A stretch of 64,000 nucleotides of DNA from Patescibacteria group bacterium (GCA_019745315.1 JAIETH010000001.1:193295-257294), one strand, 5' to 3'. Counted from the stretch's first letter, positions 2,697 through 38,254 are shown. Translations and numbers: made by a program. The notes: generated from the sequence alone by a model not told the origin.

Positions 2697-2984
2697 TTAT
2701 ATGGCCTCTTCTATTTTCTTTTCAAGAGTATGTTCGATCGCAGAATACTTGGCATGGAGACGGTCATACGTATGACTCAGTGCGCGATCTAAATAACGAT
2801 GCTTGTTTCGGTATGTATGGACGTAATTTTGAATGCGAGGAGAATCTATTGAAAAAAGAAAGAGACTGAGTCCTATGAGCACCCATCCTGGTAGGATCGG
2901 CAATGCCACAAAGAGAAGGCCACACACAAGGAGACATGTCGCAACAATTTTTCGGAGCATTGGTTTTTTTCGTAATGTTTGCAT
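2697..2984 (-). CDS. small PGPGW-type membrane protein
   Basis: 95 aa with two TM helices and an LPILPGWVLIG motif typical of PGPGW/YbaN-like small membrane proteins. Confidence 0.45.
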   Translation of the reverse strand: MQTLRKKPMLRKIVATCLLVCGLLFVALPILPGWVLIGLSLFLFSIDSPRIQNYVHTYRNKHRYLDRALSHTYDRLHAKYSAIEHTLEKKIEEAI

Positions 2985-3007
2985 GTTCTTTTGTGCTACC
3001 TACCGCA

Positions 3008-11861: not shown

Positions 11862-12115
11862 GAACCAAAAGGCTTTTAGGCACTTTTAATTCTTTATAAC
11901 GATTTTCTATAACCTCCGATTTTTATAATAAAAAATTAATCGGGCTTCTCGTAAGTTTTTAGCAGCCTTCTTTATCTATGGCGCTCCGGTTGTACGTGCA
12001 AGAGAGATGCACACCGTAATACGTGCAATATCTTGAAAAACTAATGAGACTAGTTACCCGAAGAATATAGCATAAAAATGCTTTTTTGGCAATATACTCA
12101 CTTAAAAACCTCCTC

Positions 12116-14109: not shown

Positions 14110-16848
14110 TTATTTAAGCATCACCTCTATCTCTTTAAGTATATCAAGAAGTAGTTTTGATTCAGCTTGAGTAATTCCTTTTTTTGTAGATCTTTTAATC
14201 AAGTGCTCAAGTGTATGAATTGCTCCTCGAGAAAGAAATTTTCTTTTTTTATCGATTGATCTCTCTGCTGTTTTTGCAAGAGCTTCGAGTGATCGCTTAA
14301 GTGACCTTGGCGCACTCAACGCCTGTATTGCAGTATTAAGATCATCAAAAAGCTGATCGAGTGATTTTTTTATTGCATCAGGAGAAATATTTTTATCAAC
14401 CGCACCATCACCATTGCTATCGATAGAAAGAGTATTTGTTGTAATATCTGAACCCACCTCAACAGAACCGCGCAACGCACTTGTCACAGGAATGTCAGTA
14501 AATGATTGAGCAGCCACTACTTCGTCATCATCTATATGTTTAATTTTAAATGTAAAAGTTCCCGTAGCAGTACCATCTAAATTCACATTATATGATTCTT
14601 GAGAAGGAAGAGAGATGAAAACACTTTCCCCTATTTCTAAATAGGAAGCATTCGGTATAGTCTGCATAACATACTCCGCATTCGCAGATGCATCCATAGA
14701 CAAACCGACGCGTCCGCCCTCCTCATCACGAATCTCGAGAGAAACGGGTGAATGCATTTCAAGAGCGAGTATCTCTTCTGGGTCAGGTTCGTTTAAAGAA
14801 ACATAGTCTATAGAGCCTACGGATTCATTAATGAGCACGCTCTTTAGTATATTTAACACGGGACCAGATCCGATCATATTCGCATGATCTCTTTTTATGG
14901 GATCTCTTGTTATATTTTTATTATCATTGTAAGTATTTAAATCTACATACAGAGTCTCCACTGGCATAGCAGTCGCACTCTGCAGCACAACCGTTTCATC
15001 GCCAAGAGATGTAATGCGCGGAGTGGCTTGAACTCCATAAAAAGTTTCGCACGTAAGAGCAATGAGTCGCCTACATCCATACAGATTTTTCTTTGTAATA
15101 TATTCAATCCCACTAATGGTTCCAATGCCCCACCCTGCTACTTGCACGATGCGCACATCGGGCTTGCCATCTCCGTCAGAATCTCTCGGCATCCATTCGT
15201 CAAGACGTTCATGAACAGATCCAGCATCAGCGAGTAAGCTAGGAGTCAAAATTACAGGATGTTGTACATCTTTATACACTGGCTCTTTGCGCCCCTCACT
15301 TCCCTGTAGAAAGTTTTGTAACTCTGAGTAACTCGCAATATCTTCTCCATACGGTTTCCTGTAATCAAAAACGGATGCAATACCATCTCCTGTATACCTT
15401 TCACGATCACGTTTTTGTATTGTTGCGGCAAGCTGATCTAAGGAAGAGGTAAACGTCACAACAGGTGTAGAAGTTTGCTCAAAATATTTTTGAGAAGGCA
15501 AAAGGTTATATGCACCCGGTGAATACCGCACCGCATGGCGCCATGTTTCGTCTTCAAGTCCTATAGGAAATCTACTTAATGCGTTTTCCGCCCCATGAAG
15601 CATAGGTAATAACGTTTTTGGTGTACCGAGCTGAGGCACCGCTACTAATACGACGAGGTCAATTTTTGAAAATAGTGGATCGTTTCGTTCCTCTAGGTCG
15701 GCAAGTAATGCTTTGGCGAGCAGCCCACCATTGGAGTGAGCAATAATTGAAACCTTCCCTGTATCAGATGAATTCGCAAGATTATGCAGCTCTTGGTATA
15801 TGTATGGGGTATCTGTCGCTGATAGAAAAGACAACTTTTCATCGGTAACCTTGCCAGAAGTAAGTAATGTATCTATACCCAATCGCCAATCATAGGCTAT
15901 AGCTTTCCACTCTTTAATCTTGTCTTCAGATACAAGCGTATCGAGAGCCTCAGGCAAACCTGCGTATACAGGCACGCCTGATATAAAAGACTCGTACGCA
16001 GTGAGGATAATGTCATTCTCCTTGGTATAGATACCAATTTCTTTACTAGTACCATCCTCGTTCATAAACATATGTTCAACATCATCATCGGCACCAATTC
16101 CTACGTTTGGAGTCCATATTTGATCTTCTGACAGAAGCCCATCTCTGTAGAGATAACTCGATTGCACTCCAGGAAAGAAAGCAACATTAGAGAAACCACT
16201 CGGTGTAGAGGTTGCGGCTATATATTCAAAAACAAATGATCGTGAGTAGTCAGGAAGAGTCTTATCTACGTTATCATCCGTATTAAATTGAATGAAGTGA
16301 AGATAATCTGAAAATTCATATGGCCTGCTATTCCATGTATCAGTCTCTGGGTCGTATGTATCAGCAGTTGCAGGAAACCATACTACTTCAATAGCATATT
16401 TACCTGAAAGAACATCGGGACTACCTATAACCATACGTGGAAAAGCAACAGAAAAATCTTGAATGTCTTGTGAAATATTCTTTCTCACAAAATCATATGT
16501 TTCTCCTTCGATTGGAGTTTGTGACAAATAATTACCTGAATCATCAAGTTTATGCAAAAAGACGTACGCATCGTCATTTGGCGTATAGTTAATCGGTAAA
16601 AGGAAGCGAATCGTCCACTCACTACTTTCATCTATAAAATCTTGTGCATCGATCCCTCCTTCAACAAGCACGCCTCTATAAGTTCCAGAAAGCACAGCAT
16701 TGGGATCCAATTCAAAATCAGCAAAGATTGGTAGCGGTTTTAAAATAAATAAAAAAGCGAGCAATGCGCTCGCAACAATCAATAGACATCGTGGAGTGCC
16801 ACTTAAGGCATCTCTCGAAAGACCGTCAAATATGTGACAATCCCTCAT
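14110..16848 (-). CDS. large (912 aa) secreted protein with alpha/beta-hydrolase (lipase/PGAP1-like) core
   Basis: N-terminal signal/TM. The nucleophile elbow IIAHSNGGLLA (GxSxG-type). Long flanking beta-rich regions. Confidence 0.55.
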   Translation of the reverse strand: MRDCHIFDGLSRDALSGTPRCLLIVASALLAFLFILKPLPIFADFELDPNAVLSGTYRGVLVEGGIDAQDFIDESSEWTIRFLLPINYTPNDDAYVFLHKLDDSGNYLSQTPIEGETYDFVRKNISQDIQDFSVAFPRMVIGSPDVLSGKYAIEVVWFPATADTYDPETDTWNSRPYEFSDYLHFIQFNTDDNVDKTLPDYSRSFVFEYIAATSTPSGFSNVAFFPGVQSSYLYRDGLLSEDQIWTPNVGIGADDDVEHMFMNEDGTSKEIGIYTKENDIILTAYESFISGVPVYAGLPEALDTLVSEDKIKEWKAIAYDWRLGIDTLLTSGKVTDEKLSFLSATDTPYIYQELHNLANSSDTGKVSIIAHSNGGLLAKALLADLEERNDPLFSKIDLVVLVAVPQLGTPKTLLPMLHGAENALSRFPIGLEDETWRHAVRYSPGAYNLLPSQKYFEQTSTPVVTFTSSLDQLAATIQKRDRERYTGDGIASVFDYRKPYGEDIASYSELQNFLQGSEGRKEPVYKDVQHPVILTPSLLADAGSVHERLDEWMPRDSDGDGKPDVRIVQVAGWGIGTISGIEYITKKNLYGCRRLIALTCETFYGVQATPRITSLGDETVVLQSATAMPVETLYVDLNTYNDNKNITRDPIKRDHANMIGSGPVLNILKSVLINESVGSIDYVSLNEPDPEEILALEMHSPVSLEIRDEEGGRVGLSMDASANAEYVMQTIPNASYLEIGESVFISLPSQESYNVNLDGTATGTFTFKIKHIDDDEVVAAQSFTDIPVTSALRGSVEVGSDITTNTLSIDSNGDGAVDKNISPDAIKKSLDQLFDDLNTAIQALSAPRSLKRSLEALAKTAERSIDKKRKFLSRGAIHTLEHLIKRSTKKGITQAESKLLLDILKEIEVMLK

Positions 16849-17932: not shown

Positions 17933-18511
17933 TTAAAACGAGATAGCGAAAGGAAATGACATTGAAGCTGCATTCTCTTCAAGTCCTGAAGGATTGTCTT
18001 TTTCCAATATCAGAGTTGCATTTCCTGCGTATGCACCAGAGATCATTACGTATGCACGAAATGGTACAAACTCTGTCGTCATCCAGTCTGACTCAGCACG
18101 CGCAGTAACTTTTGCCATCAGTTGCCCCTCAGAATCAAGAATTGTTATAGGAAACACTCCTTCAGAAAACCACTGCCCACGTGCTTTTCCTACAATAGCA
18201 AACTCTGTTCCTGTTACCGCTCCAGGAAATGGTAACTCGACAGTGATCATATCCGCGTCAGCGTTGACATACGTAATATCTGGAGCAATCTCTTTGGCGT
18301 AGGTACGTCCGTCTGGTGTCGTACAACGCGGAGGCTGCATTTCTGATACTGGGTACCCCGCATCAACACAATCCTCATACGATAATACATTTTCTGGAGA
18401 CATATTCTGCTTACGCATTTCCTGCGTATAAAAGAATACAAATACAAGACCTAAAATAATTAGTAATGTTGCTGCAATACCTCCTATTGTATGTGTCATT
18501 TTCATACTCAT
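17933..18511 (-). CDS. Gmad2 Ig-like domain protein, membrane-anchored
   Basis: N-terminal TM. The C-terminal region ARGQWFSEGVFPITILDSEGQLMAKVTARAESDWMTTEFVPF matches the Gmad2/GerMN-associated Ig-like domain. Confidence 0.65.
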   Translation of the reverse strand: MSMKMTHTIGGIAATLLIILGLVFVFFYTQEMRKQNMSPENVLSYEDCVDAGYPVSEMQPPRCTTPDGRTYAKEIAPDITYVNADADMITVELPFPGAVTGTEFAIVGKARGQWFSEGVFPITILDSEGQLMAKVTARAESDWMTTEFVPFRAYVMISGAYAGNATLILEKDNPSGLEENAASMSFPFAISF

Positions 18512-21081: not shown

Positions 21082-21978
21082 CTAATTAGATTTTGTTTCG
21101 TAGTAGCCTACTAATGCTTTTATACCTGCAAGGTTTTGAGCCCATTCAATCGTTTCATGAGTTTTAAGCTCTACTGTGATTGCTGGAATATTAATAGAAG
21201 CGAGCCATCCTTCAGCATCTCCTGTTACAGGATATGCATCAAAAGAATCTACTGCCGTATACCCTGCGGCTTTTGAATACGTATTCATAATAGCAAGCGT
21301 TTCTGGCAAAATGCCATTCTCGCACTCCGAAGCATACACCGCATTTGCCTGACTATGCCAAAAAACGACAGCGTCCGGAGCACTTTTTACAACAAATGTT
21401 TGTAAGGCTTTTGCTTCTGGCTCAGAGAATGGTGCAGTACCTGCACTCACCACCTCACTTCTCCAGGTACTTTCTGGTTTCCACTTACAGTCAAAGTTAC
21501 GATTAAGATCTACGTCGCGAGCATTAAAGCGACCGAGAGCGGTACTACTTGTTGGTACGTCAGAGAGTGCAAAGCGTCCCTCTTTTTGAATAACATCATA
21601 GAGACCATCTGGATTAAGAGATGGGATCACGGTAATACGAAGATTGTCGGAAATAAATGTAGGATTTGAAGAAAGGTAATCCATGAAAGAATATGCTAAT
21701 AACACACTATTCCATTCATACCCTCCATGGATCCCACCCACAAGAAGAAGATGTGTATCTCCATTTCCATACGTATACGCTTGTATTTCCCGACCCAAAA
21801 CCGAAGTACCGATAACTTCTTCTGAAACAAACGGTTTCTCCTCTTCGACAGAAATCGGCTCTACAACCGGAACATTCACAGCTGGCGTATCATTTTTCAA
21901 CCAGAGAAAACCAACAATACAACAGAGTACGAAAACAAAACCAATAGCAACACCGAGTCGCGCTCGAGAACTAAGCAT
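21082..21978 (-). CDS. M14-family zinc carboxypeptidase
   Basis: GGIHGGYEWNS zinc-binding region. N-terminal TM. Paralogous to the next gene. Confidence 0.75.
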   Translation of the reverse strand: MLSSRARLGVAIGFVFVLCCIVGFLWLKNDTPAVNVPVVEPISVEEEKPFVSEEVIGTSVLGREIQAYTYGNGDTHLLLVGGIHGGYEWNSVLLAYSFMDYLSSNPTFISDNLRITVIPSLNPDGLYDVIQKEGRFALSDVPTSSTALGRFNARDVDLNRNFDCKWKPESTWRSEVVSAGTAPFSEPEAKALQTFVVKSAPDAVVFWHSQANAVYASECENGILPETLAIMNTYSKAAGYTAVDSFDAYPVTGDAEGWLASINIPAITVELKTHETIEWAQNLAGIKALVGYYETKSN

Positions 21979-22901
21979 TATTTAGCGTAGAATTTAAGGA
22001 GAGCATCAACACCTGCTTTGTTTTTTGCCCAGTCAGTGCTGGTGTGAGTTGCAAGAAGTACGCTAATAGCTGGAATTTCTTTTTTCGCAAACCAATTCAC
22101 CATGTCTCCGGTGATTTCATAGAAATCAAAATCTTGGTACGCCTTGTATCCTGACGCATCAGCAAATGTTTTCATGATTGAGGTGGTCTCTCCTGAAACT
22201 CCATTGTGACAACTTGATGCAAAGACTCCACCCGCAGAGCTATACCACACCACAACCGCATCAGGTGTATTGGCCTCTACGTACGCTTTCACCGCCTGAC
22301 TTTCCGGCTCTGAAAAGACTGCAGCCCCTCCACTCACTGCCTTATTCTGCCACATACCTTTCTCGTTCCAGTCACAGTCAAAGTTGCGATTGAGGTCTAC
22401 AACGTTTGCATTGAAGCGACCTTTTATAAGAGTTTCTTGGGAACCAGAAATATCTGCCTGCGCAAAGCGACCTGTCGTACTTCCTACTACTTTACTTAAC
22501 CCATCTGGATTCATCACAGGAATAACAGTCACGCGAACATTTTTAGGAACGGTGCTCGATGACTGCGCAAGGTAGTCCATAAGCTCGTAGGAGACAAGTG
22601 CAGTATTCCAACTATAGCCACCATGAATTCCTCCAATAAACAGAAGATCCGTGTCTCCTTCTCCATAATGATACGCAACAATATCGCGTCCCTCGACAGA
22701 TTTTCCAATCACTGTTTTTGTTTTGTCTTTTTCTTCTTCTTTTACTTCACTCGTTGTCGTAGCAGTAATATCAACCATTGTAGGATTCGTATTCGGCATT
22801 TGAGGTGTTTCAGATTTTTTATAGAAAGAACTCTGTGTAAATAAATAACCTCCAATAACCACTACCACTATAACAACCACTGCGCTGATGAATATTTTCA
22901 T
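21978..22901 (-). CDS. M14-family zinc carboxypeptidase (tandem paralogue)
   Basis: GGIHGGYSWNT. Same architecture as 21082-21978. Confidence 0.75.
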   Translation of the reverse strand: MKIFISAVVVIVVVVIGGYLFTQSSFYKKSETPQMPNTNPTMVDITATTTSEVKEEEKDKTKTVIGKSVEGRDIVAYHYGEGDTDLLFIGGIHGGYSWNTALVSYELMDYLAQSSSTVPKNVRVTVIPVMNPDGLSKVVGSTTGRFAQADISGSQETLIKGRFNANVVDLNRNFDCDWNEKGMWQNKAVSGGAAVFSEPESQAVKAYVEANTPDAVVVWYSSAGGVFASSCHNGVSGETTSIMKTFADASGYKAYQDFDFYEITGDMVNWFAKKEIPAISVLLATHTSTDWAKNKAGVDALLKFYAK

Positions 22902-22990: not shown

Positions 22991-23011
22991 AAAAAAAGCC
23001 CGTGCTCACGG
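22991..23011 (-). terminator. terminator of GC-rich two-gene cassette
   Basis: GC hairpin (CCGTG-AGC-ACGG) followed by T7 on the minus strand. Confidence 0.45.
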
Positions 23012-23239
23012 CACCGGCTCTTGCTCCTTGACGATCTCTCGCACCTTCTCCATGAAAATGGCGAGACTTCTGCGTTCCTCGGACGTTAAAACCCGATCGA
23101 CGACGACACCCCTCCCGCCGATACGTTCGAACCCCTGCAGTCTGCCGCCTTCGAGAGTCAGTATCATTCCCGCCTTGCCAGGACATGCGATATCCACCAC
23201 CTCCTTCGCGCCATCGCCCTTGCGACAGTGGTATATCAC
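23006..23239 (-). CDS. hypothetical small protein (77 aa), GC-rich cassette gene 2
   Basis: ATGA overlap with the upstream gene. No family recognised. Confidence 0.4.
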   Translation of the reverse strand: MIYHCRKGDGAKEVVDIACPGKAGMILTLEGGRLQGFERIGGRGVVVDRVLTSEERRSLAIFMEKVREIVKEQEPVP

Positions 23240-23478
23240 AGACAGCGTCTGGAGCTGATCTGAACGCTCCGATAGGCTTCCGAGAGCTTTCGTGGAGTAT
23301 TTCGATTGATGACGAAGGCTCCCGACGCACGAAAGACATCATAGAGCTCCGAAATCTGAAGATTGGGCGGGCCGACAATAGCCCTGAAAAGGAACCGACG
23401 GAAGCTCGGGAAAAGGATCGCGAGAACGATCACACTTCCCACGATATAGATCACCCACGCCCAGGTGTTGGAAATCAT
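23236..23478 (-). CDS. hypothetical small N-terminal-TM protein (80 aa), GC-rich cassette gene 1
   Basis: CAGGAGA RBS 8 nt upstream of the ATG at 23478. One TM helix. Confidence 0.4.
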   Translation of the reverse strand: MISNTWAWVIYIVGSVIVLAILFPSFRRFLFRAIVGPPNLQISELYDVFRASGAFVINRNTPRKLSEAYRSVQISSRRCL

Positions 23479-23538
23479 CGGTTTTTTCTCCTGTATTCAA
23501 CCGGCGCACATACTACAACAAAACCGAGTTGGGGACAA

Positions 23539-24165
23539 TCAAACTACGTCTTCATTATTAACTTTTCCCTCCTCGATAACTGCCGCAACTATTCCCTTCT
23601 CTTTCCATCTCACATATCGATATCCTCCAACAACCACAATACCAGCACCAACAACAGAGATAATCAAATCCCACATAGTATCGCCATTGCTCGGCTGCAT
23701 AGTAGCAGTTGGGTGAAAAAACATGTCAATAAAAAATTCATATATCTCCCAAAGAACTGCAAGCGAGAGTGTAAATGATAGGGCAAGAAATGAAGTAAAC
23801 GCAGGAGAAATTGAAAGATCGCGCTCTCTAAAAAATATCACAAGCAACATAAAGCCTATGACAGTGAGACCCACACTTGCAGCTCCATGCAACATCAAGT
23901 CCCACCACTGAAATGTATTATAAAAATCTGCAATCTCTCCTAAAATAAGTGTTCCAAACATGAAAACGACAATACCTATTCGCAGGAGGTACGGTGTAAA
24001 TATATTGAAGCGTTTCTCAAGTACGTACGGAATAATAACCACTACCGCAGCTTGCGCCAGAACAAATAAACTCAACCAATCGAGTTTCCAAAGTTTATAA
24101 AGAGCTATACCTAAGAAAATAGCGTGGGCTACCTGTAGTACTCTGTAAGAGATATTTTTGAGCAT
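23539..24165 (-). CDS. hypothetical polytopic membrane protein
   Basis: 208 aa with about 6 TM helices. Confidence 0.5.
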   Translation of the reverse strand: MLKNISYRVLQVAHAIFLGIALYKLWKLDWLSLFVLAQAAVVVIIPYVLEKRFNIFTPYLLRIGIVVFMFGTLILGEIADFYNTFQWWDLMLHGAASVGLTVIGFMLLVIFFRERDLSISPAFTSFLALSFTLSLAVLWEIYEFFIDMFFHPTATMQPSNGDTMWDLIISVVGAGIVVVGGYRYVRWKEKGIVAAVIEEGKVNNEDVV

Positions 24166-24199
24166 TCAGCTCAGTATAGCTGAAAAAGAGAAAAGGATG

Positions 24200-25699
24200 C
24201 TAATCCTTCTTTTGATCGTATTTTTCTGAAATAAGATCAGCAGCGATCATGCCTGATTGATAAATGGTCGGCAAACCACTCCCCGGATGTGTACCACCAC
24301 CCACCAGATACATCTGATCTATTTCTTCAAATTTATTATGCGGGCGAAACATCAGCATTTGATCAAGACTATGCGCCATACTAAATACAGCTCCTCGATA
24401 GACGCCTGAAGCTTCCCAATCAAGTGGTGTAATTATTTTTTCGGTCACAATATGTTCTCGTATATTCTTTATAGGAGTACGCTTTTCAACTTCATTCAGT
24501 ACGATGTTTTTAAAAGTTTCTTTTTCTTTATTCCAATCAATGTTACTTGCATTATTCGGTACTGGAACGAGTATATAGATATTAGTCATACCCTCTGGTG
24601 CGACGGTTTTATCTGTCACCGACGCATTACGTACATAGAATGAAAAATCTTCAGAAACTTCGAGCGTTTTAAAAATTCTCTCAACATTCTTGCGATACTC
24701 TTTCGCAAACATAATAGTGTGATGCTTCATGTCTGGGTACTCCCCCCTGATACCGAGATAAATCATGAATGTTGAACACGAGTATCCTTTCTTGGCAATT
24801 TTCTCTGGACTATATTTCTTTAATACTCCTTCTGGGAATAGATGTGTCGCAGCATGCGCAAAATCGGCATTCAAAACTACTTCGTCTGCATATACCTTTT
24901 CTCCATTTTTTAGAGTCACACCAACAGCCTTCTTTCCTTCAAGAAGAACTTGGGACACAGGAGAGTTAAGATGAATAGTCCCACCTTTTTTCTCGACAAC
25001 AGCAGCCATTGCTTTCGATATTTTTGAAAGACCTCCTTCTACATGATAGATACCAAATGCATGTTCAATGTATGACAAGATCACGAAAAAAGCTGGGCAT
25101 GCAAACGGTGACATGCCGATGTATTTTGCTTGAAAGGTAAATGCGAGACGAAGCTTTTCAGCCTTAAAGTAGTTACCAAGATACTCAAAGAGAGATTTTC
25201 CGAGAGGTATCTGTGGAAGTGTCTTTATCACATTCAAATCTAAGAAATCTCGTACTGACGTATAGTTTCGTGCAAGAAAGGGTTTAATTTTTTCAAATCG
25301 GACTGACTCTCGCGCCATAAAACGATCGAAGCCCGCCTCTTCTCCTGGGAAATGTTTTTTGATCTCTGCTTTCATCCGTACTGCATCATCGTAGACATCA
25401 AAATTAAAGTCTTCATATGCAAGCTGATACATATGATTGAGACGCGTAAAGCGCATGTAGTCTTCACTTGATTCTCCGGAGCGTGCAAATACATCGTCCA
25501 GCATATCCTTAAGCATCAAAAATGTAGGACCGACATCAAAGGTAAACCCATCCTGCACAATTTCTGCATTGCGTCCCCCTACTATTTTTTCTTTTTCAAA
25601 TATATGTACGTCAAAACCGCGAGAGGCCAAAATCATGCCTGTCGTAAGCCCTCCCGGACCTGCTCCGATAATAAGAATTTTTTTTCGTGCGTCACTCAT
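24200..25699 (-). CDS. FAD-dependent oxidoreductase of the phytoene desaturase (CrtI) family
   Basis: N-terminal Rossmann KKILIIGAGPGGLTTGMILASRGFDVHIFEKEKIVGGR. The start was chosen at MSDARKK (25699), which forms an ATGA overlap with the UbiA gene stop. Confidence 0.75.
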   Translation of the reverse strand: MSDARKKILIIGAGPGGLTTGMILASRGFDVHIFEKEKIVGGRNAEIVQDGFTFDVGPTFLMLKDMLDDVFARSGESSEDYMRFTRLNHMYQLAYEDFNFDVYDDAVRMKAEIKKHFPGEEAGFDRFMARESVRFEKIKPFLARNYTSVRDFLDLNVIKTLPQIPLGKSLFEYLGNYFKAEKLRLAFTFQAKYIGMSPFACPAFFVILSYIEHAFGIYHVEGGLSKISKAMAAVVEKKGGTIHLNSPVSQVLLEGKKAVGVTLKNGEKVYADEVVLNADFAHAATHLFPEGVLKKYSPEKIAKKGYSCSTFMIYLGIRGEYPDMKHHTIMFAKEYRKNVERIFKTLEVSEDFSFYVRNASVTDKTVAPEGMTNIYILVPVPNNASNIDWNKEKETFKNIVLNEVEKRTPIKNIREHIVTEKIITPLDWEASGVYRGAVFSMAHSLDQMLMFRPHNKFEEIDQMYLVGGGTHPGSGLPTIYQSGMIAADLISEKYDQKKD

Positions 25700-26565
25700 A
25701 CTATATACACATTGAAATGGTAGACCAGATAGCCGACAAGATATGTTACAAAAGGATACAGCATATAGATAGAAAATACAGACCCCTTTTTGCGCAACAT
25801 ATAGAAACTTGCTGCGATAAGAACAAGATATGGAATCACGAGTCCTGTATGCGCATAGAGGCCTGACATCCACAGACAGAGCGCGACCGCGATATACCCC
25901 ACAAGACATACCCAAAGAGTAGCCTTCGCTTTCAAAATTGTGGCGATAGTTGCTATTCCTGCTTTTGTATCTGCCTCGATATCAGGGATTGCAGAGTATG
26001 CATGCATGACCGAAGACCAAATAGCTCCCGCAATCACTGGCAACCACCATATCTCTGTACCTCCTGCAGCAAAGTACCCCATAAGTCCTACACTCGCACA
26101 GAACACTCCATTTGAAAGACTATCGAGAAATGGTCTCGCTTTGAGACGCAGCGGAGGAAGCGAGTATGCGAGATTGAAAAGTATGAATGCAGCGCATGCC
26201 ATCTGCTCCAAGAAGGATGCTTGGTATAAGAGCGGAATAAAAGGAATTTGAAACAATATAATTGCCCATATAAGAGTCTTTTTCTCCTTAGCGTCTACAC
26301 GTGCTTCATACGTCCCCTTTTTTTCATTAAATGCATCGGTGTCTCCATCCGCAAGGTCGTTAATCCCATACACAAAGAGGTTTGCCGGGAGCGTAAAGTA
26401 GATGAGCCAAAAGACAATGTCGAGATTAAACACAACCGCATTACTCAACGACTGGGCTGCGCCAATACCGATGAGATAGGGGCCGAGTGCGTACATCCAA
26501 AAACGTGGACGTGATATATTCAATAAACGAAGCATCATAGTGATATCCATTGTAGTGCGAAACAC
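25696..26565 (-). CDS. UbiA-family prenyltransferase
   Basis: NDLADGDTD and DIEAD aspartate-rich motifs. 8-9 TM helices. GTG start at 26565, or ATG at 26550. Confidence 0.75.
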   Translation of the reverse strand: MFRTTMDITMMLRLLNISRPRFWMYALGPYLIGIGAAQSLSNAVVFNLDIVFWLIYFTLPANLFVYGINDLADGDTDAFNEKKGTYEARVDAKEKKTLIWAIILFQIPFIPLLYQASFLEQMACAAFILFNLAYSLPPLRLKARPFLDSLSNGVFCASVGLMGYFAAGGTEIWWLPVIAGAIWSSVMHAYSAIPDIEADTKAGIATIATILKAKATLWVCLVGYIAVALCLWMSGLYAHTGLVIPYLVLIAASFYMLRKKGSVFSIYMLYPFVTYLVGYLVYHFNVYIV

Positions 26566-26582
26566 TCAAAGAGTAAAATAAT

Positions 26583-27833
26583 ATGAAATTGGCTTTTATA
26601 ACGGATGGAACCTGGGGGGATATACTCCCCTTTGCGTTTGTTCTTAAGGAACTCAAAGGTCGTGGACATGAGGCTACTCTCTTTACTAATGCCTTTTACG
26701 AAACATTCGCCCATACACACGACATACCTTTTGCCTCCACTACATCAGCTGCAAGTCGTACTGAATTTCTCTCAAACCCAGATCTGTGGCATCCGACTCG
26801 CGGAATTGCCTTTCTAGGAAAAGCGACCGATGAGATGTTTGAGGAATCGTATCCTATCCTCGAAGAGAAACTTAGAGAAATGGATGCAATTATCTCTCAT
26901 TCGTTTACCTATGCGGCAAAAACACTCGCAGAGAAATATAACATCCCTTACATAGCGCTCTATACCGCACCCATGCAAGCACGAAGCCTCCATCGCTTCC
27001 CTGTTTTCTATGGTGGCAAAAACCCAAATACGCTCCCGTGGTTTATACGAAAAATATTCTATCCTATTGGAGATAGATTCTTCCTCGACCCTTACTTTGG
27101 CAAGAAGGTAAATAAAAAACGTAAAGAACTTGGGCTTGCACCCGCCTCTTCGTTTGTACACTGGGGTACATCTGATTTTCTCACCATTGGTCTCTGGCCT
27201 TCTTGGTATGCGCAACCAGAAATAGATCAACCTTTTTTAAAAACTACTACGTTTCCTCAAATTGAATTTAATACACACGACGACCCTGAACTTATTGACT
27301 GGATACAGAGAGGTGCACAACCAACGGTGGTTACTTTAGGAAGTGGCTATCTTTTTACAGAATCACTTAAGGTAACTCTTGAAGAAATTTCGCGCAGTCA
27401 TGGTGAGCGTTTTATACTCATCGGCCCACACGAAGAGAGGGATATGGCGAATGACACTGTTGCAGTGATTCACAACACACACCTCTCTTCAGTACTTGCG
27501 CGCTCTAAACTACTCATTAATCACGGAGGAGCCGGAACGCTCGCGCAAGGAGTACATGCAGGAATCCCACAACTCATTATTCCTCAAGGCCATGATCAGC
27601 ATGATAATGCATTTCGTATACAGGAACACAATCTTGGAGATGTACTCTGGTCTCAACATCCAACTGCAGAAGAACTATATATAAAAATGCAAAGCGTACT
27701 CTCTTCAACATTAATTCATGAACAATGCATCAAAGCAAAAAACCAGCTTGAAGAAGATACAGATGCCTGCGTACGCGCTGCCGATCTGATAGAAGAAAAG
27801 CTCCACAGGGAGCCTTTCAATACTTCTCGTTAA
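26583..27833 (+). CDS. GT1-family (UDP-glycosyltransferase / MGT / CrtX-like) glycosyltransferase
   Basis: The GT-B C-terminal motif HGGAGTLAQGVHAGIPQLIIPQGHDQHDNA. Confidence 0.75.
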   Translation: MKLAFITDGTWGDILPFAFVLKELKGRGHEATLFTNAFYETFAHTHDIPFASTTSAASRTEFLSNPDLWHPTRGIAFLGKATDEMFEESYPILEEKLREMDAIISHSFTYAAKTLAEKYNIPYIALYTAPMQARSLHRFPVFYGGKNPNTLPWFIRKIFYPIGDRFFLDPYFGKKVNKKRKELGLAPASSFVHWGTSDFLTIGLWPSWYAQPEIDQPFLKTTTFPQIEFNTHDDPELIDWIQRGAQPTVVTLGSGYLFTESLKVTLEEISRSHGERFILIGPHEERDMANDTVAVIHNTHLSSVLARSKLLINHGGAGTLAQGVHAGIPQLIIPQGHDQHDNAFRIQEHNLGDVLWSQHPTAEELYIKMQSVLSSTLIHEQCIKAKNQLEEDTDACVRAADLIEEKLHREPFNTSR

Positions 27834-27840
27834 CGTATTC

Positions 27841-28689
27841 TTATTTCAGGTGAGACTCAAGAAAAGCAAGAGTCTTATTCCACGCATCCATCGTTTCAGT
27901 CGGTGCATAGTTTGCTCCTGATGGATTTGCAAATGCATGTCCTACCCCTGGGTAGACATAGACTTCGTTTTGAATACCAAGCGTATTAAGAGATGCCTTA
28001 AAATCGTCCACCATCTTCATAGGTATCACGCGATCCTCTTCTCCAAACACTCCAAGCACCGGCCAACTGATCGCTTTCAATCTGTCTGTTGAAGTAGCCA
28101 TTCCTCCACCGTAGTACACAACGGTCGCATCAAGCTTCTCTCCTGAAAGAGCAAGTTCGAGTGACTGCTTGCCGCCGAAACACCATCTCAAAGACGCCAT
28201 CTTCTCTGCACCATTGTCTCTTAGGTATGCAGCTGCTTTGCGCATGTTTTCAGTACCAACTTCTTGCTTAAAGTTTGCGGTCAAGGCTTTTGCGCCATCC
28301 TGATCCTCGGCAACTCCGCCGAGCAGGTCAACCGCAAGAACCATGTATCCTTGACGAGCCAATGCATCAGCTGCTTCCTTTATCTCAGGACGAAGACCTC
28401 GATTCTCATGAACCATCACAATACCTGGATATTGTCCTTCTGATTCAGGACGAGCAAAGTATCCCTTTGCCCCCGGGAAATACTCGAGATCGGCAGTGAC
28501 CGTAATAGGAGTACCAGTATCAACTTTCATCATTTCAACATTCTTAGCCTCTTTTTCTGGAGTATTCATAGAAAAGAAATCAGTATTTGTATACGCAAAC
28601 CATCCGCCCACCAACAGCACACCTAAAGCTCCTACTATAATTATATTTTTCATAACCTGAGTATACCAAAACAATAAACACTTCTTCAA
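27841..28689 (-). CDS. dienelactone hydrolase family alpha/beta hydrolase, membrane-anchored
   Basis: DLH-type fold and a GVGHAF motif. Confidence 0.7.
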   Translation of the reverse strand: MKKCLLFWYTQVMKNIIIVGALGVLLVGGWFAYTNTDFFSMNTPEKEAKNVEMMKVDTGTPITVTADLEYFPGAKGYFARPESEGQYPGIVMVHENRGLRPEIKEAADALARQGYMVLAVDLLGGVAEDQDGAKALTANFKQEVGTENMRKAAAYLRDNGAEKMASLRWCFGGKQSLELALSGEKLDATVVYYGGGMATSTDRLKAISWPVLGVFGEEDRVIPMKMVDDFKASLNTLGIQNEVYVYPGVGHAFANPSGANYAPTETMDAWNKTLAFLESHLK

Positions 28690-28698
28690 TCTGCTTCT

Positions 28699-29643
28699 CT
28701 AGTCCATGAATCGTCTCAAAATTGAATCGTGAGGAATATATTGATCCACTTCATGTAGGCGCACAAACGGAACAGTGAAAACGAGTGTACCAGGATCACA
28801 GACACCACTCATTGCATATCCCCAGCTCGCACGAAACACAACAAGCCCACCCACTGGATCTAGGTCCGGATAAAAACTTCCAGGACTCATTCCTTCAAAA
28901 CACGGATTATCACCACGCATCTCATCTTGAGTCGCCCGTGCATTAATGAGTGTGTGTGCGTCAGGATAGAAATATGTAATCACTTTCTCGGTAGGAGACG
29001 GCAAAAACAATCCATCAGCACCCTGCTCATAGGTATCCGGAATAAAGTATTCATAATCATCAGACCAACTCGCACCATCTGGTGCAATGACATACGTTGT
29101 TAAAAATTCTCCACGGAATGAGTGAGCGGCTCCTTTGAAATAAATATCGGCAGCACCCTTCACCGTCACCACTCCCTTATCTATGTATAGAATTTTACTC
29201 TCGAGTCTATCAATACTGAGAAGTCCGAGCTCTTTCCCTGGCATCTTTGAATTAAATTCATCGAGACGCGCGTCAACGAGAGTTTCTTCATATCCCTCCA
29301 TCCAATCTCCGCCCTCCTCTCCTATGCGAACCTCATTAAAAATACCAAATGTTATAGATCCGTTTATCTCTTGTATTACCCTATCTGAAACACCATCCAT
29401 ACTCATAATAATGTCGAGAGTATTGTCTAGACCATCTATAGGGACTGGAATAGTTTTTATTTCTGCATTCACAATATGACAGCATCCAGGTCCGCTATAT
29501 GAAAAAATATCAATCATCGGCACAGGTTTTTCGACATACGGAAGAATTTTCTGAGTCACTACAGGAACCCAGAACTTCTGAGTACAGAGAAGCACTATTC
29601 CGACCAGTATGAGCACCAGAAGGGCTATACGCACATATTTCAT
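28699..29643 (-). CDS. hypothetical secreted/anchored protein
   Basis: 314 aa with an N-terminal TM helix. Confidence 0.45.
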   Translation of the reverse strand: MKYVRIALLVLILVGIVLLCTQKFWVPVVTQKILPYVEKPVPMIDIFSYSGPGCCHIVNAEIKTIPVPIDGLDNTLDIIMSMDGVSDRVIQEINGSITFGIFNEVRIGEEGGDWMEGYEETLVDARLDEFNSKMPGKELGLLSIDRLESKILYIDKGVVTVKGAADIYFKGAAHSFRGEFLTTYVIAPDGASWSDDYEYFIPDTYEQGADGLFLPSPTEKVITYFYPDAHTLINARATQDEMRGDNPCFEGMSPGSFYPDLDPVGGLVVFRASWGYAMSGVCDPGTLVFTVPFVRLHEVDQYIPHDSILRRFMD

Positions 29644-35575: not shown

Positions 35576-38254
35576 TTAGTAGTCAAACGTCCCGGCGCCA
35601 TCGAGCTCAACCGCAGGAGTCTCACACCCCACAAGCATATTTAAGAATTTATTTGTTGTTTTGTATTTATACCCAGTACCATAGGAAAGATTCCATGGCT
35701 TGAGCATCGTCTCGCTAAATGTTTCTTGAAACTTCTTGAGCGAAACACCAAGAGAAGCATCAAATGTGGTATTGATTTCACCTTTAAAGAATCCGAGCTC
35801 GGTGAGGAGTACCTTAGTCTTCTCTACCTCTGCTGAAGATGTATTTTCAGTCACACTATTATGCTCAACAAATGCCGGACACTGTATGCTCGCACTGCAA
35901 TAGAACGAGTTTATTTTCATAAGCGTTGTGCGGTACACATACCCTGTTGGCTCTGCAAGTCCCCACACCCCAAGCACTTCGCTCGCATGCTTTTTCTGGA
36001 AACGCTTCACAGCTTCAGCATCCTCTTTTGAATACACGCCATCAACAGGAAGGTTCTCTCCCTGCTTTTCATTTAAAAATGTTTCAAGCTTTCGCACATC
36101 CTCTGCATCATTTTCTACATTGAGACCTATATATGAACGTATATGCGGAGCACACACACCTACAGATGTATTCTCTACTTTCTTTTCTTCGCCGTATACA
36201 CAAAGTTCCTGCTTATGGTGAGAAAAATATTTATAGTTTGAAGCATTTGGATCTTTGCACCCAAATGGCTTATGGATCGAGGACCCAGATGATTCCTCAG
36301 TTGATTCTTCTACATCACCAAAAAGTCCAAAGATTGAGAAGCTCGGTGTCGTACATGAAATAGTATTAGCTGTTGTGTCGAGATCACAATCGTTAAGCAT
36401 TACCCACTGACCATTCGTATAGTGGAAAAGCTTAAGCGAGCTCTCATCAAGCCCATCTATCTCACTATCGGTATACTCATATTCAATAGTTACTTCAGCA
36501 TCAAAAGAATCAAGAATTGTTGATCCGTTGATAATCGCTTTAACGTCAAACACGGTCGCACCGACTTCGTTTGAGATTGTTTGCGGACGACCAATTGATG
36601 CAAGGACAGCATCGCTCGCGATTGCCTGCACCTGAATAACAAGCGTTGACGATGTCGCGGTAACTGCAGGAGGAGTGGTGACGGTAAAGGTCTTGCTTTC
36701 TGTCTCAACAAGAGTTGTGCCTCCGGCACTTGCAGTAATAGTGGTTGATGTTGCAACTGACGGCGTCGTACTTCCTGCACATCCCCCAGTGGTAAAGGAG
36801 CTGGCTGTAGAGGTCGCACTATTCCCTACCTGATCTCGGGATACTGCGCGGTAATGGTAGGTTGTACACGAAAGCAGCGGAGAAAGTGTGGTTGTGTGAC
36901 TGGTCACGCGTGGCGATGTATTCGCTTCAGAGGTGGTTGCACCAAGAGCAGAGGTGAGACCATAGAGCACTCGAGTAGATGCTCCTTCGTTTGTAGTCCA
37001 GGTAACACTTGCAGACGTTGACGCAGACGAGTTTGCCGCGAGACTTGTGATGAGAGGCGCTGTTACATCAGCTGTGGTAAATGTCCAGGTAGTTTTTGAA
37101 GATATACCATTGAAATAATTATTGGATCCATCTTTAAATGCCGTACCAGGAATAATGACGTAATACTGAACTCCTTCAAGGAGTGTCACACTTGGATCTA
37201 TGACAATTGAATTACTCCCACCACCTGTAACCTGGGCACTCGCTACATCGATCGTATCAACCGTACTGTCATCAGAATATTTTTTAATGAGAATATTCCC
37301 TGTATCTTTTGTTACCGTTTTACTAAAACTAATCGCGAGATTTGCAGTTGTTGTAGCGTTTGTACTTCCGGTCGAAGGAAAGAGTGTGGTCACTGCAGGT
37401 ACGTCAGCCGTAACAATAGACACATTTCGAGAGACAACAGTAGGAAGTGCTCCATCAGCACCAAACTCGACAACATACCCTTGCTGCGCTGAACACGGAA
37501 AGTCATTCCACTCACCATTTTGTGATGAGTACATGTATCCGCAATCCTCACCACTTCCATAATCATTCGGCTCACCACTTGCCCATCCGTTATATCCACC
37601 CGAAATTGGTAATCCCGTTGTTTCGTTATAAAACGCAGTACCACTCTCCGGGCCAGCAGCCCACTTCCATGTCTTTTCTGTTTCAGAGTCTGTCGCACTC
37701 AACCATCCGTCTCCCGAGAGACGCTGGTAGATAAATGTATTCTCTTCATCAGACGTAACTGTTGCAAGGTATCCAGTCGCACCATATGCACTCTGAGCCT
37801 CAGCAGCACTTTTTGCTGCAGACCAGGTAAAGCTACCTGAGGTAAATTTATACAAGTGACCATTATCTGCAAAAAAGATTTCTGTAGGATTTACCAGCGC
37901 CACTTCAAGTGTATCGGTTCCTGTAGAACCACGAGTATACGTGAGCGTTGAAAGTGCTGAGTTAAGATTCGTAACCGTACCCGAGAGATTCAAGGTATCG
38001 CTATTATTTCCACTTATCGTCACTCCTGAAGTAGCAGAAACTCTCACCGTACCACTAGTCACATAAATCTTAACCGGAGTTGTTGAAGCTCCATTTCCCA
38101 CAATCTGGAATCCCGAAATAGAAGTAGCAACGTTTGGAGTGGTGGTCGCATTATTGCCACTAGTGAGCGTAAGCACATCAGCGTTCGCCACAACAGGAAA
38201 TACAAAAAAGACTGCTGCAACAAGCAGGAGCATTCCGTGAAAATACCGAATCAT
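35576..38254 (-). CDS. large surface protein: signal peptide, C-type lectin domain, Ig/Fn3-like repeats, two C-terminal peptidoglycan-binding-like domains
   Basis: GEPNDYGSGEDCGYMYSSQNGEWNDFPC is the canonical C-type lectin signature. The C-terminus has PG_binding_1-like repeats. Confidence 0.7.
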   Translation of the reverse strand: MIRYFHGMLLLVAAVFFVFPVVANADVLTLTSGNNATTTPNVATSISGFQIVGNGASTTPVKIYVTSGTVRVSATSGVTISGNNSDTLNLSGTVTNLNSALSTLTYTRGSTGTDTLEVALVNPTEIFFADNGHLYKFTSGSFTWSAAKSAAEAQSAYGATGYLATVTSDEENTFIYQRLSGDGWLSATDSETEKTWKWAAGPESGTAFYNETTGLPISGGYNGWASGEPNDYGSGEDCGYMYSSQNGEWNDFPCSAQQGYVVEFGADGALPTVVSRNVSIVTADVPAVTTLFPSTGSTNATTTANLAISFSKTVTKDTGNILIKKYSDDSTVDTIDVASAQVTGGGSNSIVIDPSVTLLEGVQYYVIIPGTAFKDGSNNYFNGISSKTTWTFTTADVTAPLITSLAANSSASTSASVTWTTNEGASTRVLYGLTSALGATTSEANTSPRVTSHTTTLSPLLSCTTYHYRAVSRDQVGNSATSTASSFTTGGCAGSTTPSVATSTTITASAGGTTLVETESKTFTVTTPPAVTATSSTLVIQVQAIASDAVLASIGRPQTISNEVGATVFDVKAIINGSTILDSFDAEVTIEYEYTDSEIDGLDESSLKLFHYTNGQWVMLNDCDLDTTANTISCTTPSFSIFGLFGDVEESTEESSGSSIHKPFGCKDPNASNYKYFSHHKQELCVYGEEKKVENTSVGVCAPHIRSYIGLNVENDAEDVRKLETFLNEKQGENLPVDGVYSKEDAEAVKRFQKKHASEVLGVWGLAEPTGYVYRTTLMKINSFYCSASIQCPAFVEHNSVTENTSSAEVEKTKVLLTELGFFKGEINTTFDASLGVSLKKFQETFSETMLKPWNLSYGTGYKYKTTNKFLNMLVGCETPAVELDGAGTFDY

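Follow-up and report, generated by a model that had tools for sequence, protein, structure and literature searches.

A predicted carotenoid tailoring module of a CrtN-type desaturase, a LyeJ-type prenyltransferase and a glycosyltransferase in a Patescibacteria bacterium

The haloarchaeal bacterioruberin cluster has the composition crtB-crtD(CrtID)-lyeJ-cruF; examples are found in Halarchaeum (pCBA1220-01), on a plasmid of Halocatena salina (L010/L011 in our set) and in Haloarcula japonica (c0507) (PMC11946383). The C30 glycosyl-carotenoid cluster of Planococcus and Halobacillus is organized as crtNa-crtNc-crtM-crtNb-GT-AT-cruF. In Planococcus, diapophytoene desaturase activity was demonstrated for Orf1/CrtNa, and hydration of a C30 end group by CruF is followed by glycosylation, giving 5-glucosyl-5,6-dihydro-4,4'-diapolycopene (PMC8502411). 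Other CrtN-based C30 pathways, including the squalene route, are represented by crtN-ald-crtNb in Methylomonas and by hpnCDE with crtN/crtP in Planctomycetes (PMC10745290, PMC9907078); some CrtN-like enzymes are thought to work in C40 pathways (PMC9907078). Finally, lyeJ, crtD and cruF were detected in Patescibacteria from Lake Baikal with custom HMMs (E < 1e-15) and were interpreted as a bacterioruberin pathway (PMC9948471).

We analyzed a stretch of 64,000 nucleotides from a Patescibacteria group bacterium (GCA_019745315.1), here called the window. A preliminary description had pointed to three neighboring genes as a possible module for isoprenoid or carotenoid tailoring. All three open reading frames are present at the coordinates it gave, and the locus contains the following features.

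24200-25699, minus strand: CrtN/CrtNa-type FAD-dependent carotenoid desaturase (CrtI superfamily), 499 aa
25696-26565 (maximal ORF), minus strand: LyeJ-family UbiA prenyltransferase (lycopene elongase/hydratase type); homologue-backed start ATG at 26535, 279 aa
26536-26582: short intergenic gap that separates the UbiA-desaturase operon from the divergent glycosyltransferase gene
26583-27833, plus strand: GT1 nucleotide-sugar glycosyltransferase of GT-B fold, 416 aa, without a TM segment
23539-24165, minus strand: possible accessory gene (low confidence) for a polytopic membrane protein related to DUF2238 (the 'Wok' Lipocone family), 208 aa

Our main reading, which we hold with a probability of about 60%, is that the three enzymes form a self-contained carotenoid tailoring module. 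From their sequences they are predicted to act on an acyclic polyene by desaturation, then by C5 prenylation with hydration, and finally by glycosylation. The polyene backbone is probably C30, judged from the sequence of the desaturase. A prenylated and glycosylated carotenoid that has not been described before is the probable product, because the desaturase is of the C30 (CrtN) type and not the usual partner of an elongase.

The UbiA stop codon overlaps the desaturase start in an ATGA. This overlap is genuine; the minus-strand junction reads AGTATGAGTG, with GTA-TGA(stop) overlapping ATG-AGT. The operon architecture is one of two translationally coupled genes, UbiA and desaturase, with the glycosyltransferase in divergent orientation. 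The divergence had been described correctly, but its proposed spacing of 17-32 nt probably does not hold. The longest UbiA frame begins with a GTG at 26565, 17 nt from the glycosyltransferase start. However, all of the aligned UbiA homologues (25/25) start at the residue corresponding to M11, 'MLRLLNISRPRFW', so the alignment makes 26535 the likely start and about 47 nt the likely gap. Promoter-like matches in this gap were at chance level (9 against 10.7 +/- 3.4 expected), and we claim no regulatory element there.

The same three orthologues occur together in seven further independent contigs (L001/L002/L095, L003/L004, L006, L092, L093, L094 and L174), eight including the window. Their identity to the proteins of the window is 50-70% for UbiA, 46-66% for the desaturase and 36-52% for the glycosyltransferase. 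In 6 of the 7 contigs with both genes, the desaturase comes after UbiA, the two overlapping or lying no more than 63 nt apart. The gene order in L001 is different, and the association survives this rearrangement. Its recurrence in eight independent contigs, kept through a rearrangement, marks the trio as a functional unit, a predicted pigment-lipid module conserved in a few small-genome bacteria. One could still suppose that three functionally unrelated genes lie side by side by accident; the flanking genes vary among the contigs, and no common regulator or promoter was found. This is extremely improbable, given the co-occurrence of the orthologues through a rearrangement, the ATGA overlap that is seen again in L006, and the narrow group to which the glycosyltransferase belongs. 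The group consists of 11 proteins with 43-52% identity, the next relatives being at about 30%, and at least 6 of the 11 are encoded on contigs with the UbiA and/or the desaturase (including L092, L003 and L174). Synteny effectively refutes an accidental adjacency.

The UbiA protein matched PF01040 (E 3.3e-25) and has several hydrophobic, TM-like stretches. It narrowly passed the LyeJ model NF009516/PRK12875 (cut-off 205) with 214.2 bits; haloarchaeal LyeJ proteins encoded beside crtD and cruF reached 397-426 bits and the member of a Pacebacteria cluster 227 bits. Models of the MqnP, UbiA and MenA type gave only 15-23 bits, which argues against a quinone or haem-O prenyltransferase. The motifs NDLADGDTD (NxxxDxxxD, residue 69) and DIEAD (DxxxD, residue 195) are present, and their residues are invariant in an alignment of 26 sequences that includes haloarchaeal LyeJ. 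In a simple neighbor-joining (NJ) tree, the method also used for the desaturase, the UbiAs of the trio form a single clade (bootstrap 0.895) within the LyeJ-like family, among UbiAs of PSY/CrtI/CruF clusters. The model and the tree place the protein in the lycopene elongase/hydratase (LyeJ) family. Its enzymatic activity is predicted from this membership, the reaction of the family being C5 addition with hydration at the psi-end of lycopene. The other LyeJ-like loci of at least 6 kb (n = 47) contain a CrtI/CrtID-type desaturase in 40 cases, PSY in 38 and CruF in 24. GT1 genes likewise adjoin the LyeJ-like genes in L142 and L154, which are C40-type clusters.

Membership in the LyeJ family is also what a canonical C50 (bacterioruberin-type) pathway would predict. 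Here the UbiA would be a true elongase of lycopene, the desaturase would fill the role of CrtI/CrtD, the glycosyltransferase would produce bacterioruberin-like glycosides, and crtE, crtB and cruF would be encoded outside this region. The preliminary description and the Lake Baikal study read such genes in this way. Complete GGPPS-CrtB-CrtI-LyeJ-CruF clusters exist on other contigs of Patescibacteria type (L005 and many loci), and a Saccharibacteria genome carries lyeJ beside crtD with cruF far away (PMC9948471). In addition, Arthrobacter makes glycosides of bacterioruberin (PMC10991996), and enzymes of the CrtI family can be bifunctional and promiscuous (PMC11946383). The separate clade of the trio UbiAs, in contrast, is consistent with an altered partner or substrate, and the desaturase also speaks against a C50 pathway.

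The desaturase matched the Pfam family Amino_oxidase (E 2.7e-31) and scored 466.6 bits on the NCBIfam model TIGR02734 crtI_fam (cut-off 238), which makes it a member of the CrtI superfamily. Its nearest PDB entries are 4dgk (CrtI, 268 bits) and 4rep (CrtD, 215 bits). The protein has an N-terminal GAGPGG dinucleotide fold (residue 12) and a C-terminal YLVGGGTHPGSGLP motif, with MYLVGGGTHPGSGLPTIYQS at residue 463; the PROSITE-type pattern for this signature has N or G in position 1, which is Q here. In the NJ tree it falls within the CrtN/CrtNa clade of C30 desaturases (bootstrap 1.0). CrtNb/CrtNc branch outside this clade and CrtID is separate as well, the split between CrtN and the desaturases of CrtID/LyeJ clusters having a bootstrap of 1.0. 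Clade members with 49-59% identity to it are encoded by the opening genes of two kinds of cluster, crtN-ald-crtNb in Methylomonas (cf. PMC10745290) and crtNa-crtNc-crtM...crtNb...cruF in Halobacillus and Exiguobacterium; the second layout agrees with the Planococcus cluster (PMC8502411). The desaturases of the trio are not strictly monophyletic; the copy from L003 joins an ABC1-linked CrtN from Saccharibacteria.

An identity as CrtID/CrtD (NF058655) was rejected, since the desaturase scored 342 bits at a cut-off of 640 while a haloarchaeal CrtID reached 754 bits. The same holds for a role as the CrtD/CrtID partner of LyeJ, because it is only 26-29% identical to the LyeJ-linked enzymes of haloarchaea. 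The earlier label of a CrtI-like phytoene desaturase is thus correct for the superfamily, but the enzyme is neither the phytoene desaturase CrtI nor CrtD/CrtID and belongs to the CrtN/CrtNa clade instead. This placement changes the predicted chemistry. A tblastn search of the window found no second gene of the CrtI family besides 24200-25699. The gene lists of L001, L003, L006 and L092 hold a single Amino_oxidase gene each, and a broader set of probes, with CrtN, CrtNb and CrtNc among them, detected no second desaturase in L093-L095. An accompanying CrtP/CrtNb oxidase with aldehyde dehydrogenase was not found in these sequences.

The third enzyme has a Glyco_transf_28 N-terminal domain (PF03033) and an EryCIII-like C-terminal domain (PF06722) and is on this account a GT1 enzyme with GT-B fold; Glyco_tran_28_C (PF04101) and UDPGT (PF00201) were matched as well. 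The C-terminal sugar-nucleotide motif HGGAGT...PQGHDQ is located at residue 314. Among solved structures, GtfD/GtfA/GtfB and YjiC are its closest relatives (E 1e-16 to 1e-10). Automated labels on the orthologues read 'rhamnosyltransferase subunit B'. It had been called GT1/CrtX-like. The GT1 assignment stands, but on the model of the MGT subfamily (TIGR01426), which we take to include CrtX, the protein scored 74.7 bits, below the cut-off of 260.

We searched for the enzymes that could supply a backbone. As had been suspected, phytoene synthase is absent from the window; tblastn and a CrtB/CrtM profile HMM built from 65 sequences (positive controls 315-400 bits) gave a best window match of E 0.8. 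A profile of the hydratase CruF (PF04240; 40 sequences, controls 255-265 bits) had no match in the window or the trio loci. Altogether, neither the 64-kb window nor 167 kb of sequence surrounding the eight copies of the trio yielded a backbone synthase, a polyprenyl synthase or CruF, and the same 167 kb lack the CrtI/CrtID-type desaturase, phytoene synthase and CruF of the usual LyeJ loci. For CrtN-type genes the absence of a nearby synthase is normal: 14 of 80 loci have one within 10 kb and 66 do not. For a C50 pathway it counts as contrary evidence, with PSY, CruF and GGPPS in none of the eight trio loci against PSY in most of the ordinary LyeJ-like loci. Together with the clade, the CrtID score and the low identity of the desaturase, this makes a C50 pathway on lycopene unlikely. 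The Pacebacteria contig L005 has a full GGPPS-CrtB-LyeJ-CruF-CrtI cluster, which, with the lyeJ/crtD/cruF genes from Lake Baikal (PMC9948471), weakens the earlier remark that such a pathway would be unusual for a small-genome organism.

The possible accessory gene (23539-24165) is on the strand of the desaturase and lies 35 nt downstream of it. Its protein has no direct Pfam or NCBIfam match; 6 of 39 homologues weakly matched DUF2238, and it is 37% identical (E 4e-27) to the product of a gene in L174 that is annotated as PF09997 and lies about 1 kb from the glycosyltransferase. No homologue occurs in the remaining trio loci or in 2.4 Mb of CrtN/LyeJ loci. In L092 a TspO gene follows the desaturase. 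Related loci have light-related neighbors, namely a CarH/LitR-like regulator, TspO and photolyases; in L007 the CarH/LitR-like light-sensing regulator adjoins a patescibacterial CrtN.

Some of these neighborhoods bear on the idea that the trio modifies a non-carotenoid lipid. The amine-oxidase-fold enzyme would then be a saturase or isomerase, the substrate a polyprenol, a squalene-like compound or a scavenged host lipid, and the product a colorless prenylated glycolipid. A DUF2238/Wok-type lipid head-group enzyme adjoins the module in two contigs, and the desaturase clade adjoins ABC1/UbiB kinases in 18 of 80 loci. The clade is also present in Patescibacteria and DPANN archaea without known pigmentation, and some holders of CrtN lack any synthase and 'could have other functions' (PMC9907078). 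However, both core enzymes belong to clades whose characterized or context-assigned members all act on carotenoids, the mean column identity between the desaturase and CrtN of pigmented organisms is 65%, and there are the light-related neighbors of the related loci. We consider a non-carotenoid lipid very unlikely. The proposal of an isoprenoid or carotenoid tailoring module kept as a syntenic unit is supported, and none of the contrary observations named with it (a UbiA akin to quinone or haem-O enzymes, an oxidoreductase grouping with amine-oxidase-like enzymes that have no isoprenoid link, homologues that are never syntenic) was made.

A carotenoid tailoring module could work in the following way. 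The FAD-dependent desaturase would act on an acyclic, head-to-head isoprenoid backbone, in which it would introduce conjugated double bonds. Because no synthase or CruF is encoded in the window or in the 167 kb around the trio copies, the substrate is deduced from the desaturase clade only; the likeliest is C30 4,4'-diapophytoene or squalene, which would be converted to diaponeurosporene or diapolycopene. The membrane-embedded LyeJ-type enzyme would then alkylate the isolated terminal C=C with DMAPP, and water would quench the cation. In this way the end group would be extended by C5 and gain a tertiary hydroxyl, so that a C30 backbone would give a C35 or C40 product. LyeJ-type enzymes are not known to use C30 substrates. 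The soluble GT1 enzyme would transfer a sugar from an NDP-sugar to the tertiary hydroxyl, and the resulting amphipathic carotenoid glycoside, seated in the membrane, may serve in photo- or oxidative protection or in the control of membrane order. Hydration followed by glycosylation of a C30 end group has a chemical precedent in Planococcus (PMC8502411). The module has no linked backbone synthase (CrtM, Sqs or HpnCD); this enzyme may be encoded elsewhere in the genome or be absent.

If it is absent, the trio would be an orphan tailoring unit in an organism without any head-to-head synthase of the SQS/PSY family, and would make a C5-elongated C30 carotenoid glycoside (C35 or C40). We regard this as quite unlikely. 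We know of no described natural product of this class. One possibility is that squalene or a carotenoid precursor is scavenged from a host membrane, yielding a pigmented prenylated glycolipid. Another possibility is that the backbone comes from a non-canonical enzyme, for which one candidate is the adjoining DUF2238/'Wok' Lipocone membrane protein. Condensation of prenyl diphosphates by this family in carotenoid neighborhoods has been put forward as a speculation in a recent preprint.

Like the haloarchaeal bacterioruberin cluster, the locus has a LyeJ-family UbiA gene next to a co-oriented gene for a CrtI-superfamily desaturase, and the UbiA shares the Asp-rich motifs and most invariant residues with haloarchaeal LyeJ. 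It differs in having CrtN and not CrtID as the partner, in the lack of cruF and of a linked crtB, in the additional GT1, and in the gene order, which is lyeJ then desaturase here and the reverse in haloarchaea. With the Planococcus/Halobacillus cluster it shares a desaturase orthologous to CrtNa (about 50% identity, same clade) and a predicted logic in which desaturation is followed by a tertiary hydroxyl at the chain end and by glycosylation. In contrast to that cluster, a prenylating LyeJ-type enzyme and not the hydratase CruF would supply the hydroxyl, with the result that C5 is added, and the neighborhood of the trio is devoid of crtM, crtNb/crtNc and the acyltransferase. The CrtN pathways of Methylomonas and Planctomycetes use the same desaturase clade, and a backbone synthase unlinked to crtN is common to most CrtN-based C30 organisms; those pathways, unlike the trio, include the CrtP/CrtNb oxidase and aldehyde dehydrogenase and end in terminal oxidation to acids and glycosyl esters, whereas prenylation and glycosylation are predicted here. 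The genes from Lake Baikal have the same candidate-phyla-radiation context, with lyeJ beside a CrtI-family gene and cruF not clustered; that study left the desaturase subfamily unresolved and made no mention of a glycosyltransferase (PMC9948471). As lyeJ/crtD were already known from Patescibacteria, the trio is a further variation on a known type of locus.

The three open reading frames of the trio were found in the window as the preliminary description had reported them. Their positions, and that of a neighboring gene, are:

24200-25699, minus strand: desaturase, a 499-aa flavoprotein of the CrtI superfamily (Pfam Amino_oxidase, E 2.7e-31)
25696-26565, minus strand: UbiA prenyltransferase (PF01040, E 3.3e-25)
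26583-27833, plus strand: GT1/GT-B glycosyltransferase (GT) with Glyco_transf_28 N-terminal and EryCIII-like C-terminal domains
23539-24165, minus strand: 208-aa polytopic membrane protein, 35 nt downstream of the desaturase and on the same strand

The junction sequence bears out the proposed overlap: the stop of UbiA and the start of the desaturase have ATGA in common. An alignment of 25 homologues sets the UbiA start at ATG 26535 ('MLRLLNISRPRFW') and not at GTG 26565, and the former is almost certainly the true start. With this start the divergent spacer between UbiA and GT is ~47 nt, instead of the 17-32 nt originally estimated. Over positions 23000-28900 a promoter scan returned promoter-like sites at chance level only; terminator-like sites in this interval numbered 13, compared with 4.6 +/- 2.3 in shuffled sequences, and the top-ranked one lies within the GT coding region.

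All three orthologues are grouped on seven further independent contigs. The gene orders there (L-numbers denote loci outside the window; numbers joined by a slash count once) are:

L001/L002/L095: desaturase (+), GT (-), UbiA (+)
L003/L004, L006, L092, L093 and L094: GT (-) / UbiA (+) desaturase (+), with GT divergent
L174: UbiA (-) / GT (+), divergent, with UbiA truncated by the contig end

The UbiA and desaturase genes of L006, a locus from the NCBI assembly GCA_040384145.1, overlap by 4 nt, as they do in the window. Identity to the window proteins is 50-70% for UbiA, 46-66% for the desaturase and 36-52% for GT. The flanking genes vary among these contigs, which indicates that the association of the trio outlived rearrangement. 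This synteny excludes a chance adjacency of three unrelated genes; the trio is a genuine unit, as had been proposed. The orthologue group of GT is small: it comprises 11 proteins (43-52% identity), and no fewer than six are encoded on contigs that also bear UbiA and/or the desaturase; the next relatives of GT are at ~30%. A Planctomicrobium homologue of GT (27% identical) had no carotenoid genes around it.

The desaturase scored 466.6 bits on the NCBIfam model TIGR02734 crtI_fam (cut-off 238). Its earlier description as CrtI-like holds at the level of the superfamily; the subfamily is CrtN and not the CrtD/CrtID type. The protein is 55-68% identical to members of a strongly conserved clade (mean column identity 65%) from many phyla, and scanning GTDB with one genome for each species yielded 80 loci that belong to it, at 48-59% identity. 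In Methylomonas an aldehyde dehydrogenase gene and then a second CrtN-like gene come after the clade member; together the three make up the crtN-ald-crtNb unit of 4,4'-diapolycopene-dioate synthesis (PMC10745290). The clade member also heads the order crtNa-crtNc-crtM...crtNb...cruF, which is seen in Halobacillus, Exiguobacterium, Bacillus and relatives; in the Planococcus cluster, which has the same layout, Orf1/CrtNa was demonstrated to be a 4,4'-diapophytoene desaturase (PMC8502411). A neighbor-joining tree (200 bootstraps) placed every trio desaturase inside the CrtN/CrtNa clade (support 1.0), with CrtNb and CrtNc outside of it and the desaturases of CrtID/LyeJ clusters in a separate group (support 1.0). 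Tree, identity and model scores together classify the window protein as a CrtN-type enzyme, which would act in the C30 pathway.

An assignment to CrtD/CrtID, the desaturases that partner the lycopene elongase/hydratase LyeJ, was rejected. In addition to the separate grouping in the tree, the identity to haloarchaeal lyeJ-adjacent desaturases is only 26-29%, and the NCBIfam CrtID model (bifunctional phytoene/3,4-desaturase, cut-off 640; cf. PMC11946383) gave 754 bits for the haloarchaeal enzyme versus 342 for the window desaturase. Also rejected was orthology with the CrtI of L005, a Pacebacteria locus with a complete carotenoid cluster; the two desaturases are 28% identical.

The window UbiA reached 214.2 bits on NCBIfam NF009516 (cut-off 205). 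The meaning of this model was calibrated with two haloarchaeal crtB-crtD-prenyltransferase-cruF clusters (L010 and L011); their prenyltransferases scored 397-426 bits, which identifies the model with the LyeJ family. Models for homogentisate phytyltransferase, MqnP, UbiA and other prenyltransferases gave 15-43 bits, and a quinone, haem-O or DGGGP-type enzyme was rejected on these scores. Both Asp-rich motifs (NDLADGDTD and DIEAD) and the family-wide invariant residues of haloarchaeal LyeJ are present. A metagenome scan found 80 LyeJ-like loci; three of them reach 50% identity or more with the window UbiA, all with the trio, and the remaining 77 (33-43% identity) are situated in classical carotenoid clusters. 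The 47 of those LyeJ-like loci that span at least 6 kb contain a CrtI/CrtID-type desaturase in 40 cases, phytoene synthase in 38, CruF in 24 and GGPP synthase in 16. Neighbor joining placed the UbiAs of the trio loci in a clade of their own (bootstrap 0.895), which lies inside the LyeJ-like family. The lycopene-elongase type proposed for this protein is thus supported by model score and tree position alike.

Searches with tblastn and HMMs (built from 65 PSY/CrtM, 40 CruF and 19 GGPPS sequences; positive controls 255-427 bits) found no PSY/CrtM, CruF or GGPPS in the 64-kb window or the flanks of the trio loci, 167 kb in total. The absence of a phytoene synthase from the window was thereby confirmed, and neither crtB, crtM, cruF nor a polyprenyl synthase was found in any trio locus. 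By Pfam annotation the remaining large open reading frames of the window are housekeeping genes and secreted hydrolases, with no isoprenoid genes among them. The lack of a nearby synthase is not odd in itself, since an SQS_PSY gene lies within 10 kb at only 14 of the 80 CrtN loci, 13 of these in Bacillales. Such neighborhoods agree with the 'squalene route', where crtN has no linkage to sqs or hpnCDE; CrtN-bearing clades without any synthase also exist (PMC9907078).

An ordinary bacterioruberin pathway with its remaining genes elsewhere in the genome is plausible. PMC9948471 interprets patescibacterial lyeJ/crtD in this way, and complete clusters occur in related bacteria: L005 (Pacebacteria GCA_022763365.1, 4306-15667) holds GGPP synthase, phytoene synthase, a LyeJ-like enzyme, CruF and a CrtID-like desaturase, so that full C40/C50-type carotenoid synthesis is present in the candidate phyla radiation. 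We nevertheless disfavor this pathway for the trio, because the desaturase belongs to the wrong subfamily and crtB and cruF are consistently missing from the trio loci.

The 208-aa membrane protein offers a lead on the missing synthase. It has no direct Pfam, NCBIfam or PDB match; some homologues match DUF2238 weakly, and the motifs W-E-x-x-E-x-x-x-D and D-T-M-x-D are invariant across 39 homologues. Its single-sequence AlphaFold model was poor (pLDDT 60.7, pTM 0.33). DUF2238 is the 'Wok' family of the Lipocone superfamily, for which a carotenoid gene neighborhood was noted and a condensation of two prenyl diphosphates was speculated in a preprint (bioRxiv 10.1101/2025.01.14.632903). L174, the closest trio relative of the window, carries a DUF2238-annotated gene (2632-3267, minus strand; 37% identical) ~1 kb from GT. 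The family HMM found this one copy in L174 and none in the six other trio loci or in 2.4 Mb of CrtN/LyeJ loci; for this reason the gene was not accepted as a core part, and it is a candidate synthase outside the conserved module.

Some neighboring genes in related loci have a link to light, in keeping with a role in pigmentation. In a Patescibacteria genome (L007, 7682-11524) a MerR/B12-binding (CarH/LitR-like) putative light-sensing regulator is divergent from an ABC1-CrtN pair, a position that suggests light control of the CrtN-type desaturase. Two photolyase-family genes flank the L005 carotenoid cluster. In L092 the gene after the trio desaturase is a TspO/MBR gene (11526-11930), and such a gene is also found near the C40-type LyeJ clusters L111, L131 and L135; CrtK, encoded in the carotenoid cluster of Rhodobacter, belongs to the TspO family.

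The CrtN-type clade also adjoins an ABC1/UbiB-family atypical kinase (PF03109) in 18 of the 80 GTDB loci and in L007, L009 and L175. The pairing spans Verrucomicrobiota, Acidobacteriaceae, Patescibacteria, Saccharibacteria and Woesearchaeota, and we know of no described function for it. The loci are:

L007, L009, L012, L014, L015, L019, L026, L027, L035, L039, L041, L047, L052, L056, L064, L072, L076, L083, L084, L090, L175

A parallel UbiA-CrtN pairing in another ultra-small lineage is found on a Micrarchaeota (DPANN) contig (L008, 9095-11512). Here a distant UbiA (~30%; 110 bits on NF009516) is directly upstream of a CrtN-type desaturase that shares 56% identity with the one in the window, and genes of the mevalonate pathway (GHMP kinase, isopentenyl phosphate kinase-like, UbiD/UbiX-like) adjoin the pair.

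A non-carotenoid lipid as the product of the module is suggested by how often the desaturase clade is paired with these kinases in Patescibacteria and DPANN archaea; against this, both enzyme families occur in a carotenoid context.

The named relatives of UbiA are Pacebacteria (40% identity), those of the desaturase a Patescibacteria group (59%), Gracilibacteria (57%) and Saccharibacteria (48%). Judged from these relatives and the gene content of the window, the trio-bearing organisms are probably a small group of Patescibacteria. A tandem pair of M14 zinc carboxypeptidases is kept near the trio in the window (21082-22901) and in L001/L002 (L001 3832-5669), with 56-65% identity between orthologues, which indicates that these genomes are related. 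Gmad2-like immunoglobulin-fold proteins of ~190 aa, alike by eye in their C-terminal parts, are encoded within a few kb of the trio, both in the window (17933-18511, minus strand) and in L094 (6974-7543, minus strand). Two window proteins are very large, with a domain make-up unusual in a small genome, and their targets could be lipids or the surface of a host: one of 912 aa (14110-16848, minus strand) with an LCAT-like (lecithin:cholesterol acyltransferase/lipase) domain, and one of 892 aa (35576-38254, minus strand) with C-type lectin, peptidoglycan-binding and purple-acid-phosphatase N-terminal domains.

None of the three enzyme families is new, and Patescibacteria have already been reported to carry lyeJ/crtD. 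The novelty lies in their combination in a small group of probable Patescibacteria, where a prenyltransferase of the LyeJ clade is coupled with a CrtN-type desaturase and with a GT1 dedicated to the module, and where the loci lack crtB and cruF. The analysis shows to which families the enzymes belong, how the operon is built and that the synteny is conserved; the chemistry may be pictured in three steps. The CrtN-type enzyme would desaturate an acyclic C30 backbone (diapophytoene or squalene). The LyeJ-type enzyme would then use DMAPP to prenylate an isolated terminal double bond with addition of water, giving a C5-extended end group with a tertiary hydroxyl, and the soluble GT1 would glycosylate that hydroxyl.

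If this is true, lycopene-elongase-type prenyltransferases are not confined to C40-to-C50 pathways; enzymes of this type would have been combined anew with a GT1 and the C30 (CrtN) branch. The trio would be a compact three-gene cassette for a predicted new class of compounds, elongated diapocarotenoid glycosides, and reduced-genome bacteria would retain a dedicated unit for tailoring membrane pigments. This raises the question of whether the backbone is made by the cell or derived from a host. Furthermore, 'bacterioruberin genes' called in Patescibacteria from generic CrtD/LyeJ HMM matches may need reinterpretation. Interest in the module would grow with a genome free of backbone synthase, or with the detection of the predicted C35/C40 diapocarotenoid glycoside.

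A GT1 gene adjoins the LyeJ gene in two C40-type clusters (L142 and L154), and bacterioruberin glycosides are known from Arthrobacter (PMC10991996). The nearest chemical precedent for the trio is Planococcus, where diaponeurosporene is hydrated by CruF and a GT then yields 5-glucosyl-5,6-dihydro-4,4'-diapolycopene (PMC8502411); in the trio, the predicted prenylating hydratase would stand in for CruF.
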